Origin: a virus
Strand: one strand, 5' to 3'
IMG/VR virus record: IMGVR_UViG_3300045988_091566
Length of the DNA: 64,000 nt
Shown: positions 15,639 to 18,720 of the stretch, piece after piece
Numbering within the stretch: the first letter of the stretch is position 1
Layout of the letters: every line of letters begins with the position of its first letter
Program-made: the position numbers and the translations under genes
Notes under the pieces: model-generated
Database searches by the model: none
Told to the model about the DNA's origin: nothing
What the model saw: only the letters and a program-made list of their open reading frames with translations

Positions 15639-15711
15639 GGTCCTGTAGCTCAGTGTATAGAGCAGGAATCTTCTAAATTCCGGGTCGTGAGTTAGATTCT
15701 CACCAGGACCA
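15639..15711 (+). tRNA. tRNA-Arg (anticodon TCT)
   Basis: Hand-folded cloverleaf: acceptor GGTCCTG/CAGGACC, D arm GCTC-AGTGTATA-GAGC, anticodon arm GGAAT-CTTCTAA-ATTCC, T arm GTGAG-TTAGATT-CTCAC. 73 nt. Confidence 0.7.
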
Positions 15712-15716
15712 CACAT

Positions 15717-15796
15717 GCGGAGTTAGCTTAATGGCTAGAGCACCTTACTTCCACAATTCATGAGAGGTTATATTGGTTCGAATCCTTTACTCCGTA
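15717..15796 (+). tRNA. atypical tRNA-like gene (80 nt); anticodon arm not canonical, isotype undetermined
   Basis: Acceptor GCGGAGT/ACTCCGT and D arm GCTT-AATGGCTA-GAGC are clear, and it contains GGTTCGAATCC. Positions 26-52 form only a stem (ACCTT/GAGGT) around a 17-nt loop. The T stem is weak. Confidence 0.4.
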
Positions 15797-15812
15797 CTAA
15801 CATTTAAAAAGA

Positions 15813-16172
15813 TTGAGTAATATGAAAAAGATTATTTTATTAATGAGTTTTATTGTATTAACTACAATAGCTCATGCGTTTAATTATGGTTCTATCACTG
15901 TTTATCAAGATGGTGAATGGAGTGATCCATTTTACATTAAAACTTCAGTAGTATATAATGAAGCTAGAAAAACTATTACTTTTAGTAATAGTAAGTTTGG
16001 TAAAATGGTATTAAAAATATACTCTTCTGAAATGAAGGATGGAGTAGAAATCCATAATTGTGGAGAGGTTAATACAGGAAGACGCTTTGTTGTCTTTATT
16101 ACAGTAAGAAATAAAATTCCTTACGTAACTCTTAGTACTTCCGCAGATACCATGTTTTCATTTGGCTTTTAA
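15813..16172 (+). CDS. secreted hypothetical protein (119 aa) with a Sec signal peptide
   Basis: ORF track. N-terminus MSNMKKIILLMSFIVLTTIAHA is a typical signal peptide. The gene is embedded between tRNA genes. Confidence 0.5.
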   Translation: MSNMKKIILLMSFIVLTTIAHAFNYGSITVYQDGEWSDPFYIKTSVVYNEARKTITFSNSKFGKMVLKIYSSEMKDGVEIHNCGEVNTGRRFVVFITVRNKIPYVTLSTSADTMFSFGF

Positions 16173-16227
16173 GTTTCCATAATAATGTGTTAACGTTTTA
16201 CTAGTTTTCCGATATAAACTAGTACTT

Positions 16228-16311
16228 ACGGTAGTAGCTCAGTGGTTAGAGCATCTCTTTTTATAATAGGTCATTTCGAGAAGGTCATTGGTTCGAATCC
16301 TTTCTACCGTA
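16228..16311 (+). tRNA. atypical tRNA-like gene (84 nt); anticodon arm not canonical, isotype undetermined
   Basis: Acceptor ACGGTAG/CTACCGT and D arm GCTC-AGTGGTTA-GAGC are clear. The region ending ATTGGTTCGAATCCTTT is identical to the corresponding region of the 15717 gene. The middle 34 nt fold only as a TCTC/GAGA stem around a 20-nt loop. Confidence 0.4.
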
Positions 16312-16419
16312 CAAATTTAATTTGATATATTGTTAGTGTGTTTGGATAAATCCTGACTAATAAATTTATTAGTATAGGTAGGTGTTACCACTATTCTCCT
16401 TTATAGAAATGTGGGCTAT

Positions 16420-16489
16420 GGAGATATAGCTCAGAAGGTCAGAGCACGGTGAAAATCCCGAGGTTGTGGTTCAATTCCACGTATCTCCA
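16420..16489 (+). tRNA. atypical tRNA-like gene (70 nt); no canonical anticodon stem found
   Basis: Acceptor GGAGATA/TATCTCC, D arm GCTC-AGAAGGTCA-GAGC, T arm TGTGG-TTCAATT-CCACG. The 19 nt in between (ACGGTGAAAATCCCGAGGT) do not form a 5/7/5 arm. Confidence 0.35.
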
Positions 16490-16522
16490 CTATATACAAG
16501 AATAAAATTCTTATGCAGATTA

Positions 16523-16593
16523 GCTCTCTAAGCTTTAAGGTGAAGCACGAAACTTTTAATTTCGGGAAGACAGGTCAGTACTGTCAGGGAGCA
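16523..16593 (+). tRNA. tRNA-Lys (anticodon TTT); genomically encoded CCA follows at 16594-16596
   Basis: Acceptor GCTCTCT/AGGGAGC, D arm GCTT-TAAGGTG-AAGC, anticodon arm CGAAA-CTTTTAA-TTTCG, T arm GACAG-GTCAGTA-CTGTC, discriminator A, then CCA. Confidence 0.65.
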
Positions 16594-16637
16594 CCATTAA
16601 TTTTTAATTTATTAAAAGTATTCATTTGTAATACACG

Positions 16638-16667
16638 AGATTCTCAGTCTGTGAAGATAGAGAATCT
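16638..16667 (+). repeat. copy 3 of the hairpin motif: AGATTCTC-[AGTCTGTGAAGATA]-GAGAATCT
   Basis: 8-bp stem with the conserved loop, between the tRNA-Lys and tRNA-Glu genes. Confidence 0.55.
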
Positions 16668-16671
16668 ACTT

Positions 16672-16744
16672 GGCACTATCGTCTAGCTGGTCAGGACGTA
16701 ACTTTTTCAAAGTTATAAGGCGATTTCGAGCATCGCTAGTGCTA
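16672..16744 (+). tRNA. tRNA-Glu (anticodon TTC)
   Basis: Acceptor GGCACTA/TAGTGCT (G1-U72 wobble), anticodon arm TAACT-TTTTCAA-AGTTA, T arm GCGAT-TTCGAGC-ATCGC. Confidence 0.65.
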
Positions 16745-16825
16745 CTCTTCCATATTTAAAAAACTAATACGATTAATGTTTAAAATATAAAGTCAGCGGA
16801 CTTTATAACGTTAAAGAGTTGTTAG

Positions 16826-16851
16826 GCTTCTTGTCTGTGAAGATAGGGAGC
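16826..16851 (+). repeat. copy 4 of the hairpin motif: GCTTC-[TTGTCTGTGAAGATAG]-GGAGC
   Basis: Conserved loop immediately upstream of the tRNA-Ser gene. Confidence 0.5.
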
Positions 16852-16857
16852 TTTATT

Positions 16858-16945
16858 GGAGAAATGACTGAGTGGTCGAAAGTGGCACCCTGCTAAGGTG
16901 TTAGTCATATTACATGGCTCGAAGGTTCGAATCCTTCTTTCTCCG
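16858..16945 (+). tRNA. tRNA-Ser (anticodon GCT), type II with a long variable arm
   Basis: Acceptor GGAGAAA/TTTCTCC, anticodon arm GCACC-CTGCTAA-GGTGT, long variable arm, T arm GAAGG-TTCGAAT-CCTTC. 88 nt. Confidence 0.65.
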
Positions 16946-16990
16946 CTTTATTCATACTTGTAATTATAAAATATGGTTCGTGAGAATAGT

Positions 16991-17063
16991 ATTTTATTCG
17001 GAGGATTAGTGTAACGGTTTCACACGAGGGACTTTGACTCCCTAATAGGCAGTCCGACTCTGC
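16991..17063 (+). tRNA. tRNA-Gln (anticodon TTG)
   Basis: Acceptor GGAGGAT/ATCCTCT, D arm GTGT-AACGGTTTC-ACAC, anticodon arm AGGGA-CTTTGAC-TCCCT, T arm GGCAG-TCCGACT-CTGCC. Confidence 0.65.
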
Positions 17064-17263
17064 CATCCTCTACTAATTAATACATAGGTACTAAACAACT
17101 CTCAGTAACTCTGTTAAATAGCGTAATTACCTTAAAATTAATCATTTGGGTTAAAAAGAAAAAGAACGTTAGATAACTGAGGACAATGGAATAGTTTAAA
17201 TATAACCAGTGAAAATCGCCTATTATTTAAATAGATTATTAACACATTAATTATAGATAAATT

Positions 17264-17653
17264 ATGACAAGACAAGATTATTTTATTAGTAAAACCAATT
17301 TAATAGCACAAATAGAAAGTGCTAAGAAATTTGGTTGTAAACATGTACTCAAGTGTGCAAAGTTAAATTTAGCTGAACTTGAAAAGAGGTACAAAAAAGA
17401 ACATCTTTCTAATCCTCTGTTCAGTTACATGGTAACTGATGAAGAAATGGACGAACTTATTAGAAATGATGAAAAACCTACATTTAAAATCAAAGTAACT
17501 TTTAAAAGTGGAGAAGCTTATGATTTGATGTTTTATCATGAACTTAAAAGTGGAGTTAAACATTCTGATGTTGTGAAATGGGCGATGATAGGATTAACTA
17601 AAACTATTCATCATCCTGAAAATATTGTAGATGCTCGTTTTATTATGGGTTAA
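17264..17653 (+). CDS. hypothetical protein (129 aa)
   Basis: ORF track. Confidence 0.45.
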   Translation: MTRQDYFISKTNLIAQIESAKKFGCKHVLKCAKLNLAELEKRYKKEHLSNPLFSYMVTDEEMDELIRNDEKPTFKIKVTFKSGEAYDLMFYHELKSGVKHSDVVKWAMIGLTKTIHHPENIVDARFIMG

Positions 17654-17658
17654 AAGAT

Positions 17659-18018
17659 ATGGAAGTAAAAACAATACAGATTGACTCTGATACATTTTTA
17701 GTGTTTAAGGGACGAGAGTACAGACAGATAAACATAAATGATATTGTATGTATAAAAACATCTGGTAAATATAGTACTATAATAGATGTTCATGGCAATA
17801 GTATTATTGTGTGTTGCTCATTAAAAAATATTTCACGTGTTTTATGTATTGATTTTATTCTTGCAACACAAGGATTTTTAATAAATCATAAATACATATC
17901 TGAAATAACTAGAAAGAATGATGAAAATAATACATATATCTTAAAATTAAATGATGATATTCATACAACTGTGAACATTTCATTATACGTAGCTACAAAT
18001 ATGTTAAAACAACTGTAA
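17659..18018 (+). CDS. hypothetical protein (119 aa)
   Basis: ORF track. Confidence 0.45.
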   Translation: MEVKTIQIDSDTFLVFKGREYRQININDIVCIKTSGKYSTIIDVHGNSIIVCCSLKNISRVLCIDFILATQGFLINHKYISEITRKNDENNTYILKLNDDIHTTVNISLYVATNMLKQL

Positions 18019-18050
18019 TACCATAATAGTTATAGGATTTATAAAATAAA

Positions 18051-18081
18051 TATTGTTAGCAACTAGCAGATAATTAGTTGC
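18051..18081 (+). repeat. second copy of the 31-nt element TATTGTTAGCAACTAGCAGATAATTAGTTGC upstream of tRNA array 2
   Basis: One mismatch relative to the copy at 15603-15634. Confidence 0.6.
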
Positions 18082-18087
18082 TTATTA

Positions 18088-18171
18088 ACCCCTTTATCCG
18101 AACAGGTATAGGAGATGGTCTTAAACACCATTTGGCATAAGCCAGTCTGGGTTCGAGTCCCAGAAGGGGTA
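18088..18171 (+). tRNA. tRNA-Leu (anticodon TAA), type II
   Basis: Anticodon arm ATGGT-CTTAAAC-ACCAT, variable hairpin GGC-ATAA-GCC, T arm CTGGG-TTCGAGT-CCCAG, acceptor ACCCCTT/AAGGGGT. 84 nt. Confidence 0.6.
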
Positions 18172-18367
18172 CTAAATTATGACAAAAAATGGTTATTTAA
18201 GTATTTATGAATATTTTTAAACTCATACTAATCATTAATTTGTGAAAATTAATGAATTTCTTGTAATTACCTATATTTAGTCGAGAGTGACTAAAAGCTA
18301 ACTCACATTGCTTGCGAAAGTAGTATGAGTTTTAAATAAGGCTATATAGCAATACTAGTATATATAG

Positions 18368-18439
18368 AAATGCGTAGCTCAATAGCTAGAGCGTCTATCG
18401 TAGAGTAGAAGGTTGGCAGTTCAAATCTGTCCGCATTTC
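18368..18439 (+). tRNA. atypical tRNA with a 4-bp anticodon stem and an 8-nt anticodon loop (TCTA-TCGTAGAG-TAGA); isotype undetermined
   Basis: Acceptor AAATGCG/CGCATTT, D arm GCTC-AATAGCTA-GAGC, T arm GGCAG-TTCAAAT-CTGTC. The anticodon arm is 16 nt, not 17. The loop contains TAG. Confidence 0.4.
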
Positions 18440-18647
18440 CTTTTTCTATCATTATTTTAATTTTTAATTTATTAAAAATAAAAGAGTTTTGCTTGTGAAA
18501 GTAGAACTCTTATCAAAATTATGCGAAAACTTTAATAAGTTAAGGCTTCTTATAAAAAGCCTAAAGCGCTAAGTGTCTTAGTGGCAAGTTGCACATTCGG
18601 CTAGCAAGTAGAAAGGAGAGGAAGTAGCGACCCTCAGACACTTTTTA

Positions 18648-18720
18648 GGGCTTGTAGTTCAATCGGTTAAAACGGGAGACTCATAATCTCTTATTCTCGG
18701 TTCAATCCCGGGCGAGCCCA
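18648..18720 (+). tRNA. tRNA-Met (anticodon CAT), elongator-type (could alternatively be Ile2/lysidine type)
   Basis: Acceptor GGGCTTG/CGAGCCC, anticodon arm GGAGA-CTCATAA-TCTCT, T arm CTCGG-TTCAATC-CCGGG. Confidence 0.6.

Follow-up and report, generated by a model that had tools for sequence, protein, structure and literature searches.

We report the analysis of a 64,000-nucleotide (nt) stretch of viral DNA, IMG/VR record IMGVR_UViG_3300045988_091566 (hereafter the window), which carries a rapidly evolving 3-kilobase (kb) cluster of transfer RNA (tRNA) genes from an uncultured human-gut phage that translates TAG as sense in a block of its genes. The predicted amber suppressor of this phage is a tRNA(CUA) that lies on the minus strand of the window (6499-5425), roughly 9 kb from the tRNA array at 15639-18721, and a mobile group I-type intron interrupts its gene between U35 and A36 of the anticodon. 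The initial annotation had supposed that the suppressor was either one of four atypical genes of the array or lay outside the window, a dichotomy that fails in both directions, since tRNA(CUA) is in the window and none of the four genes carries a CUA anticodon. We consider it fairly probable that a joint account holds, in which an array of decoding tRNAs is accompanied by a decaying tRNA-Phe and by three tRNA bodies that do not decode, and in which suppression is the task of the intron-split gene.

The window has a G+C content of 29% and shares 93-98% identity with unannotated 'Bacteriophage sp.' contigs from human faeces. The 677-amino-acid protein was uninformative as to taxonomic placement, and a Zeta-crAss-like affiliation would be a guess. 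Recoding of TAG, as the initial annotation had proposed, is real. Three long open reading frames (ORFs) on the plus strand require TAG read-through, at 457-1818 (15 in-frame TAGs), 2633-3778 (9) and 3733-4899 (9); they run for 380-450 codons without any TAA or TGA in DNA of this composition, for which we estimate a chance of about 1e-13 from the base composition. Within these three ORFs there are 33 TAG codons as against 14 CAA and CAG codons combined, whilst the other 42 ORFs contain 250 glutamine codons and no in-frame TAG. The depletion of CAA and CAG where TAG is abundant is as predicted if TAG encodes glutamine and, taken with the analogy of published cases, makes glutamine its probable meaning. 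TAA is the main stop codon, terminating 34 of 50 ORFs; five ORFs end in TAG, and three of these reach TAA or TGA within 3 codons, the remaining two doing so after 13 and 56 codons. No family was matched in a PHROGs search with the TAG-rich ORFs. Two paralogous ORFs elsewhere on the plus strand, 53537-54613 and 61563-62906, consist of repeats of a KYDYS...CPxHGxFxQ...HL...C..C motif and hold 4 and 2 in-frame TAGs, respectively, which implies that TAG read-through extends beyond the first 5 kb of the window.

The suppressor gene was traced from an uninterrupted tRNA gene of 73-74 nt with anticodon CTA, called by ARAGORN in two related contigs (related viral contigs are denoted here by L numbers; these two are L009 and L043). 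By BLAST synteny this gene aligns to about 6454-6499 on the minus strand of the window, and the alignment resumes about 1 kb further on. Exon 1 (6465-6499, minus strand), which ends ...GAAGACTCT and so supplies anticodon bases C34 and U35, does not differ from the corresponding 5' portion of the uninterrupted 73-nt tRNA(cta) in either relative. Exon 2, AAATCTTTTAGTCTGGATTCGAATTCTAGTGGGAGAA, occupies 5425-5461 of the minus strand, as read from that strand and from the relatives, and the two are separated by an intron of 1003 nt (5462-6464, minus strand) inserted at 35/36. Joining the exons gives a cloverleaf whose anticodon loop is CUCUAAA and whose sequence matches the tRNA(cta) of the relatives apart from compensated changes in the T stem, where CTGGA/TCTAG in exon 2 replaces CAGGG/CCTTG with two compensated pairs; these changes suggest that the tRNA(CUA) has stayed under selection. 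A scan with exon 1 found 15 loci with an identical junction, CTCT/AAATC (the slash marking the insertion point), of which nine are intron-less, four carry the 1003-nt intron and two (L068 and L073) carry an intron of 219-223 nt that lacks an ORF, such that three allelic states exist at a single site. ARAGORN, run in either default or intron mode, did not detect the tRNA(CUA) of the window, and the interruption after anticodon base 35 explains why both this program and a search by hand miss it. The statement in the initial annotation that no clean tRNA(CUA) could be found by hand is correct for the array.

Read by hand, the short allele of 219-223 nt has the marks of a group I intron, with a P1 helix containing a U.G pair (CUCU/GGAG), P3 (CTTCCC/GGGAAG), P7 (AGACTA/TAGTC), a P8 hairpin, P9 and a terminal G. 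In the window, U is the last base of the 5' exon and G that of the intron. An ORF of 272 amino acids (5631-6449, minus strand), which encodes a predicted HNH homing endonuclease (Pfam HNH, E = 1.1e-5), begins 15 nt after the 5' junction and resembles, at the DNA level, HNH endonuclease genes of T4-like phages and of a Bohxovirus. Homologous introns with the same ORF are found in the phage contigs L092 and L093/L095, where they, like the window intron, end ...GGTGTTAAAATG directly before the 3' half of a tRNA, though a different one. Because Rfam returned nothing, the core structure was derived from an alignment of homologues, using three segments of 155-169 nt that follow the ORF (the window and two homologues). 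The 3' 169 nt of the window intron show the order P3-P4-P5-P6-P7-P3'-P8-P7'-P9 with a P3/P7 pseudoknot and a P7 of GACTA/TAGTC. Across the 43 pairs of this alignment, 97.7% of cells are paired, compared to 38-47% when the partners are slid, and four pairs have changed on both sides. The polymorphism for presence and absence at one site, together with the HNH ORF, marks the element as mobile, and the 1003-nt insert is best read as a mobile group I-type intron that would be capable of splicing.

Two results weigh against this reading of the intron. The Rfam group I model RF00028 gave no match at E <= 10 on the window intron or its 3' core, nor on the short alleles, and we found in the window intron no internal guide sequence that places a G opposite the splice-site U, the best P1, a helix of 10 base pairs (bp), pairing that U with A. 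Both speak for a rival account, in which the insertion is a non-splicing HNH mobile element that inactivates the gene, leaving the phage to rely on a suppressor copy outside the window or on its host. The likeness of the HNH ORF to free-standing endonucleases of T4-like phages would fit such an element too, and recoded gut phages can have two or three tRNA-SUP-CTA genes (PMC10607447). Against it, the insertion lies exactly at the site of the textbook-shaped 220-nt group I intron; it has the U-ending exon and the terminal G, and a group I core topology with covariation; the same intron family interrupts two other tRNAs; and the exons are undamaged in all four intron-bearing genomes, the window copy even carrying the compensated T-stem changes. 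Moreover, splicing has been documented for bacterial tRNA group I introns located at 35/36, and these evade the standard tRNA finders; some bacterial tRNA group I introns are also missed by RF00028 (PMC13011429). We therefore regard a non-splicing insertion as distinctly unlikely. RF00028 is able to recognise the other intron of the window, a canonical group I intron at 28915-29171 (plus strand) that scores 85.9 bits and lies by an ORF with a zf-FCS motif on the opposite strand (29098-29727).

If the intron splices, two steps would lead to suppression. The intron would excise itself from the precursor, restoring the loop CUCUAAA, and the mature tRNA(CUA), probably charged with glutamine, would then read UAG in the transcripts of the TAG-rich genes. 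The HNH enzyme would meanwhile spread the intron to intron-less alleles during co-infection, a proposal with which the three-state polymorphism is consistent.

The array itself contains eleven tRNA-shaped genes at 15639-18721, all on the plus strand, and the count of eleven within 3 kb made in the initial annotation is upheld by ARAGORN, Rfam and folding. The array is probably transcribed as one unit. ARAGORN calls eight of the eleven (Arg-tct, 'Stop-tta' at 16228-16312, Glu-ttc, Ser-gct, Gln-ttg, Leu-taa, '???(ta)' at 18368-18440 and Met-cat) and ten exceed the gathering score of 29 bits for the Rfam tRNA model. For comparison, related contigs were located via a shared 17-mer of the T arm and were then run through ARAGORN. 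Six genes are canonical: tRNA-Arg(UCU), the first of the array (15639-15712; Rfam 65.2 bits), tRNA-Glu(UUC) (16672-16745; 51.9 bits), the class II tRNA-Ser(GCU) (16858-16946; 58.8 bits), tRNA-Gln(UUG) (17000-17073; 51.5 bits), the class II tRNA-Leu(UAA) (18088-18172; 53.8 bits) and a tRNA(CAU) that may be Met or Ile2 (18648-18721; 58.9 bits), each of them called by ARAGORN. Among the relatives, tRNA-Arg(UCU) shows 4 compensatory pair types and tRNA-Leu(UAA) 8, with no broken pair in either.

The T loop of the seventh decoder, tRNA-Lys(UUU) (16523-16596), is unusual (GTCAGTA); the gene encodes its CCA and is called by neither ARAGORN nor the Rfam tRNA model. Its minimum free energy fold is a perfect cloverleaf (z = -2.9), and its anticodon stem covaries among relatives (CGAAA/TTTCG, CAAAA/TTTTG and CGAAC/GTTCG); the gene shows three compensatory pair types, and the loop CTTTTAA is invariant, with none of 28 loop columns varying across 9 variants. 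This gene is real and behaves as a constrained decoder, and it is probably functional. The initial list of seven canonical tRNAs consequently holds for six, with the lysine gene qualifying as a decoder in spite of its unusual form. Together, the six canonical genes and the unusual Lys(UUU) gene are decoders that fit the A/U-rich codon usage of the phage, which had been anticipated from the anticodons: in 42 ORFs, AGA accounts for 58% of arginine codons, AAA for 70% of lysine, GAA for 76% of glutamate, TTA for 50% of leucine and CAA for 64% of glutamine.

Between genomes of 93-95% identity, the gene content of the array changes fast. In three relatives (L001 at 1646-1731, L016 and L032) the slot of tRNA-Arg(UCU) is taken by an unrelated arginine gene of 86 nt with a 12-nt hairpin insertion in its variable region, and the same gene occurs without the insertion, at 74 nt, in L031 (1394-1467), so insertions in this array are not confined to anticodon loops. 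Directly after tRNA-Phe, three relatives (L001 at 2516-2606, L005 at 11871-11961 and L037 at 3799-3889) carry a 91-nt class II tRNA with the anticodon CCA (Trp), an unusual pairing of a long-arm body with a tryptophan anticodon. This gene is absent from the window, where the odd Lys(UUU) gene replaces both its slot and the adjacent canonical lysine gene of the relatives.

The remaining four genes have non-canonical anticodon arms, as the initial annotation had concluded, and none is called as a canonical tRNA by ARAGORN in its default mode. They are 15717-15796 (hereafter gene A), 16228-16311 (gene B), 16420-16489 and 18368-18440 (gene 4; 18368-18439 in the Rfam search), and their anticodon loops are of 17, 20, 8 (on a 3-bp stem) and 6 nt, respectively. 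All four possess a tRNA body, with fully paired acceptor stems of 7 bp, a D arm, a T arm with a TTCRANY loop and Rfam scores of 43.9, 53.2, 53.5 and 49.5 bits in the same order. None presents a 5-bp stem with a 7-nt loop in which U33 precedes a triplet and position 37 is a purine, the relatives being the same or more aberrant, and no anticodon is conserved among the orthologues.

One of the four, 16420-16489, is a recently damaged tRNA-Phe(GAA) in which pseudogenisation is in progress, with no exotic design. Its orthologue in about twelve relatives is a canonical 73-nt gene, which exists in two versions with fully compensated anticodon stems (CGGGA/TCCCG and CAAGT/ACTTG). Compared to these, the window allele lacks GAC from the 5' strand of the anticodon stem, CGGGACTGAAAATCCCG having become CGG, a 3-nt gap and TGAAAATCCCG, and what results is a 3-bp stem with an 8-nt loop. 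A sequencing error is excluded by the presence of this deletion allele in many independent assemblies. The allele decays further in relatives, through a change of GAA to AAA (6 loci), stem-breaking substitutions and versions of 69 nt, and one lineage has a version of 61 nt that has lost the entire anticodon loop; the series of 73, 70, 69 and 61 nt is that of a tRNA pseudogene.

Gene 4, which ARAGORN labels '???(ta)', is of another kind. The initial annotation gave it an 8-nt loop, though its minimum free energy fold is a cloverleaf in which a 5-bp anticodon stem closes a 6-nt loop, CGTAGA, and 8 nt are obtained if a U.G pair is opened; in relatives this closing pair is C-G. The 12 variants show 5 compensatory pair types and 6 one-sided changes that keep pairing, no pair being broken, with loops of CGTAGA, CGTTGA or CGTAAA. 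In L055 the stem sequence is wholly different (CCGGA-TGATAA-TCCGG) and the design of 5 bp and 6 nt is retained; the sole exception among the versions is L060, where the arm is different and pairs poorly.

Genes A and B resemble each other more closely. Gene A has an intact acceptor stem and D arm, and in place of the usual anticodon arm a 4-5-bp stem (CCTT/GAGG) enclosing a 17-nt loop; in gene B a TCTC/GAGA stem encloses a loop of 20 nt. The two share ATTGGTTCGAATCCTTT, the T arm of gene B being identical to that of gene A, and in this T stem two U.U mismatches leave three of five pairs. These loops and the weak shared T stem are as first described. The mismatched positions are unpaired in all 12 variants of gene B, and in neither gene is a mismatch ever repaired, the observed changes being from T64 to C in gene A of L081 and in gene B of L062 and L091. 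The 17-nt loop of gene A can be described as a 10-nt insertion 5' of TTCATGA, and in intron mode ARAGORN reports 15717-15797 as Met(cat) i(31,10), that is, with a 10-nt insertion at position 31. The proposed resemblance of A and B to tRNAs with an anticodon-loop insertion stands. It does not extend to splicing signals or to the insert: no bulge-helix-bulge motif (3-nt/4-bp/3-nt) was seen in A, B and the variants inspected by hand, and neither the inserted sequence nor the putative anticodon is conserved, the extra bases lying 5' of the latter, at 31/32; short tRNA introns of the archaeal or eukaryal type usually sit at 37/38.

Among 19 variants of gene A the loop changes in sequence and in length (12-17 nt) and the body is conserved; the relatives show 2 compensatory changes, 6 one-sided changes that keep pairing and 1 broken pair, and the D-stem pair G10-C25 is replaced by A10-T25 in L062 and L091. 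The acceptor helix of gene B is 100% paired in 12 variants, three pairs having changed on both sides (ACGGTAG/CTACCGT to GTGGTGG/CCACCAC). The length of a T run in gene B varies, and with it the 'anticodon' reported by ARAGORN shifts among tta, ata and ta; the label 'tRNA-Stop(tta)' is an artefact of a weak alternative fold. Between the two genes lies an ORF of 116 amino acids (15822-16172, plus strand) with an N-terminal segment resembling a signal peptide and no Pfam match, and the block formed by tRNA-Arg, gene A, this ORF and gene B is the only part of the array held in common with a second lineage, L062/L091, at about 80% nucleotide identity. Both genes are already large-looped in that lineage, with different loop sequences: gene A has CAATAGGATAATACATT there and (A)CTTCCACAATTCAT(A)G(A) in the window and its close relatives, whilst gene B has AGCAATATAATTCCATTTC there and TTTTTATAATAGGTCATTTC in the window. 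It follows from the presence of the large loops in a lineage some 20% diverged that the compensatory changes came after the loops had expanded. Throughout, the changes in the variants of A and B concentrate in the loops and are not spread evenly over the genes. A CAT triplet stands 2-3 nt before the 3' stem strand in most variants of both genes, and CAT is also the triplet read by eye in three canonical tRNAs of other viruses (L007, L021 and L041) that have this T arm; a tRNA(CAU) is the probable ancestor of A and B. In the scans of viral sequences, homologues of A and B belong to the same lineage or to the one group that is about 20% diverged, and more distant ones may exist beyond the matches listed in a metagenome scan.

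Several further features of the loops were considered. Gene A can be written as a tRNA-Gly with an insertion of 8-9 nt 3' of position 38 (CTTCCAC, giving UCC, or TTGCCAT, giving GCC, in L055), a reading that was dropped because L062/L091 (CAATAGG...) and L079/L081 (in which the segment is deleted) do not fit it. That the loops of gene A and gene 4 contain stop triplets (TAG, TGA and TAA) was judged compatible with chance, given their richness in A and T. An inverted-repeat search of 3.5 kb for antisense targets of the large loops gave a match of the gene B loop to 17213-17236 (19/24), no better than 30 other chance pairs. The gene A loop also shares a direct repeat (17/21) with 16051-16071 in the neighbouring ORF.

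From these comparisons it is most likely that genes A, B and 4 no longer decode. Their acceptor, D and T domains nonetheless appear to be under selection without an arm that presents a triplet, which suggests a role that needs only the shape of a tRNA. The acceptor/T-arm domain is the region recognised by RNase P and by the enzymes that process tRNA 3' ends, and the most likely role of the three genes would be as punctuation for such processing, separating the neighbouring tRNAs and the messenger RNA of the 116-amino-acid ORF. We favour this role from the layout: gene A follows tRNA-Arg by 4 nt and precedes the ORF by 25 nt, gene B follows the ORF, and a second array repeats the pattern. In this second array, where ARAGORN finds three further tRNA genes at 36109-36914, another marginal tRNA-like gene at 36253-36330 (plus strand; ARAGORN 'Asp(atc)', Rfam 34.6 bits, with an A1xC72 mismatch) is followed after 23 nt by an ORF of 158 amino acids (36354-36830), which ends 10 nt before tRNA-Ala (36841-36914), giving the same order of tRNA-like gene, ORF and tRNA as in A-ORF-B. 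The asparagine and alanine genes of this second array have mismatched acceptor stems too.

Alternatively, genes A, B and 4 may be mimics that bind tRNA-recognising proteins, a role equally compatible with the data. In a broader form of this idea, the three genes would belong, with odd-looped genes of unrelated phages that share the U.U T arm, to a class of non-decoding tRNA mimics that serve as decoys for, or competitive inhibitors of, the host's tRNA-targeting defence nucleases or further factors that bind tRNA; this we consider unlikely. Eight unrelated viral contigs (L002, L012, L014, L015, L030, L033, L042 and L049) contain a family of tRNA-like genes with a near-identical body, GGTCAGTTAGCTCAG...GTGTCATTGGTTCGAATCCTTTACTGACC, covarying acceptor stems and anticodon loops of either 11-13 nt (consensus AACYCATAAGRAA) or 4-6 nt, and the array of L049 includes two genes labelled '???(tt)' by ARAGORN. 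Odd-loop tRNA-like genes with a U.U T arm hence recur across phages.

Some observations limit the case for selection on the bodies of these genes, or tell against it. The relatives are few and close, and the covariation counts rest on 3-13 sequences; the compensated pairs of gene B derive from a single event in one lineage; and thermodynamic prediction alone gives no cloverleaf for A or B, owing to their weak T stems. Signs of dispensability are present as well, gene A being truncated at its 5' end in L060, gene B having lost 14 nt in L009/L061 and carrying D-stem-breaking substitutions in two relatives. These lesions speak for a reading of A, B and 4 as plain tRNA pseudogenes without function, their intact bodies reflecting a recent origin or hitch-hiking, and the phenylalanine slot demonstrates that lesions of the anticodon arm do arise and then accumulate in this rapidly changing array. 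We hold this to be unlikely, albeit a serious rival, since the large loops predate the split from L062/L091 and three compensated acceptor pairs in gene B and one D-stem pair in gene A have followed, since gene 4 has kept its form through the complete replacement of its stem with no broken pair, and since the changes cluster in loops rather than falling uniformly.

It is very unlikely that the three genes decode after all, the extra bases of A and B being short introns or insertions removed after transcription to yield a working tRNA(CAU) for Met or Ile2, and gene 4 being a tRNA of the frameshift type with a 6- or 8-nt loop. The intron-mode model of gene A and the recurrent CAT in A, B and the canonical tRNAs with the same T arm lend themselves to this interpretation, and the loop variants of gene 4 can be fitted by hand to 33-G34-N-N-R37-A38 minus one base. 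Reading of the sequences revealed no bulge-helix-bulge motif, however, and Pfam showed no splicing endonuclease or RNA ligase in 20 scanned ORFs that flank the array or lie in other parts of the window, a search whose result was nearly empty overall. The insertion, moreover, lies at 31/32, which is no known splice position, ranges from 4 to 13 nt in length, and surrounds its CAT with an unconserved context (A33 and T37 in L062, CTG in L055, T37 and T38 in gene B). According to work attributed to Uhlenbeck and colleagues, a T stem unpaired at 50-64 and 51-63 would reportedly be expected to bind EF-Tu poorly, a further point against decoding by A and B. Stop-codon suppression by any of the atypical genes, whether amber or, for gene B, ochre as in the ARAGORN label tRNA-Stop(tta) at 16228-16312, is scarcely credible. 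The ochre fold of gene B requires an anticodon stem with mismatches and a poor variable arm; the anticodon that it yields becomes ata or ta in relatives, and the fold is impossible in L062. TAA is the main stop codon, and the gain in ORF length when it is read as sense is equal for the two strands, a sign of noise. CTA occupies the anticodon position in none of the four genes, and a bona fide tRNA(CUA) lies elsewhere in the window. The ochre reading of gene B was accordingly rejected. For A, B and gene 4 we thus retain the interpretation of non-decoding bodies, with punctuation or mimicry as their proposed roles.

Other elements in and near the array also deserve mention. Directly 3' of tRNA-Gln lies a conserved structured element of 140 nt (17084-17223, plus strand), which is 93-97% identical to sequences in Lak megaphages and in the crAss-like phages cr124_1/cr7_1, where it is found just upstream of tRNA-Met. 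It occurs in 39 viral contigs of 52-553 kb, always directly after the 3' end of a tRNA; a 23-mer from it has no exact match in 185,579 bacterial and archaeal genomes, and the element has no match in Rfam. The RNAalifold consensus comprises two helices with 5 compensated pairs, in which ATAGG/CCTAT alternates with ATGGG/CCCAT in the first helix, and CTCTCAG/CTGAGG with CCCTAC/GTAGG and CTATCAG/CTGATG in the second. The element is a candidate for a new non-coding RNA tied to tRNA arrays. Five hairpins on the plus strand (16640-16668, 16826-16852, 16968-16996, 18296-18326 and 18478-18508) stand 20-110 nt upstream of the Glu, Ser, Gln, gene 4 and Met genes, respectively, with unrelated stems and similar loops (roughly TGNYTGYGARARTAG); a strict pattern search found 3 copies, all in the array, compared to 0.7 expected, and the hairpins may be a processing or regulatory signal. 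A 36-nt repeat (15599-15634 and 18046-18081, plus strand; 94% identical) containing the inverted repeat GCAACTA...TAGTTGC lies immediately upstream of tRNA-Arg and of tRNA-Leu, the first genes of two sub-arrays, and may be a promoter or operator. Between its copies is an ORF of 119 amino acids (17659-18018, plus strand) with a LytTR DNA-binding domain (Pfam PF04397, E = 1.8e-7). Beyond the array, at about 20600-20690 on the plus strand and upstream of an ORF at 20785-21240, there is an orphan T-arm-like motif, GTACG TTCAATT CGTAT followed by TACTTCTCCA, perhaps the 3' portion of a further tRNA-like element or split tRNA.

The array is in itself ordinary for a large phage, and the split suppressor combines two things that are already known, namely group I introns in tRNA genes and suppressor tRNAs in phages. 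Bacterial tRNA group I introns are found in cyanobacterial tRNA-Leu(UAA) and tRNA-fMet and, at 35/36, in tRNA-Asn, tRNA-Asp and tRNA-Tyr of Patescibacteria (PMC13011429, PMC3984707). The window intron shares with them the 35/36 site, the U-ending exon, the G-ending intron and a P3-P9 core with a P7 pseudoknot, as well as a host gene that is missed by tRNA finders and an intron that is missed by RF00028. It differs in that its host gene is the predicted amber suppressor of a phage and not a cellular sense tRNA, in that close phage relatives show no intron, a short one and a long one side by side and, from most of the bacterial introns, in that the window copy has an HNH homing-endonuclease ORF. 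With the recoded gut phages (crAss-like, Lak and others; Yutin 2021, PMC7886860; Borges 2021 preprint; phAss-1, PMC10607447) the phage shares a tRNA(CUA) in a low-G+C genome, a TAG codon that is enriched in one block of genes and absent from others, and glutamine as its probable meaning; unlike their suppressors, the gene described here is split by an intron.

The atypical genes may likewise be set beside known systems. Phage tRNAs that evade host anticodon nucleases (van den Berg 2023, PMC10264068; T5 tRNA-Lys against PARIS, PMC11464382) are reported to come from arrays with variants in the region of the anticodon loop, a theme that the Lys(UUU) gene of the window fits; such tRNAs are reported to keep a 7-nt loop and to decode, whereas A, B and gene 4, with loops of 17-20 or 6 nt, are not ordinary decoders. 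The layout of the array bears comparison with two other systems. Mitochondrial tRNAs punctuate polycistronic transcripts, and RNase P separates the members of bacterial tRNA operons. As in mitochondrial punctuation, the tRNA-shaped elements of the window flank an ORF and tRNAs with spacers of 4-55 nt, and an acceptor/T-arm body would suffice for the purpose; unlike it, where the punctuating tRNAs also decode, punctuation is proposed here from gene layout. Frameshift-suppressor tRNAs have 8-nt anticodon loops, and gene 4 is similar in having a loop that is not of seven nucleotides and different in preferring six to eight. The non-proteinogenic tRNA-Gly of Staphylococcus has a weakened T stem, as do A and B, at the pairs contacted by EF-Tu, though these two genes have far larger loops. 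We saw no indication of frameshift sites or of a cell-wall function for gene 4, A and B.

The array documents the death of a tRNA gene in progress and, as we read it, a minimum of three RNAs derived from tRNAs that no longer decode and yet have kept a selected body; A, B and gene 4 are candidate processing signals or molecular mimics. Should the decoy reading prove true, the rapid change of their loops would bear the mark of an arms race. As far as the literature that we searched shows, the window provides a case of a phage tRNA gene interrupted by a group I-type intron; in a 2014 review, all of the phage group I introns then known were in protein-coding genes (PMC3984707). Surveys of recoded phages repeatedly find clear reassignment of TAG or TGA with no detectable suppressor tRNA, for which incomplete assemblies and divergent, even extremely divergent, or missing genes have been blamed (PMC7886860, PMC12386605). 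The window offers a checkable alternative, that such 'missing' suppressors may be present but split at 35/36 and so invisible to ARAGORN, even in intron mode, and to the Rfam group I model. If splicing does occur, a ribozyme step and a homing endonuclease would stand upstream of the switch that enables the TAG-rich genes to be translated, and could add control over its timing.

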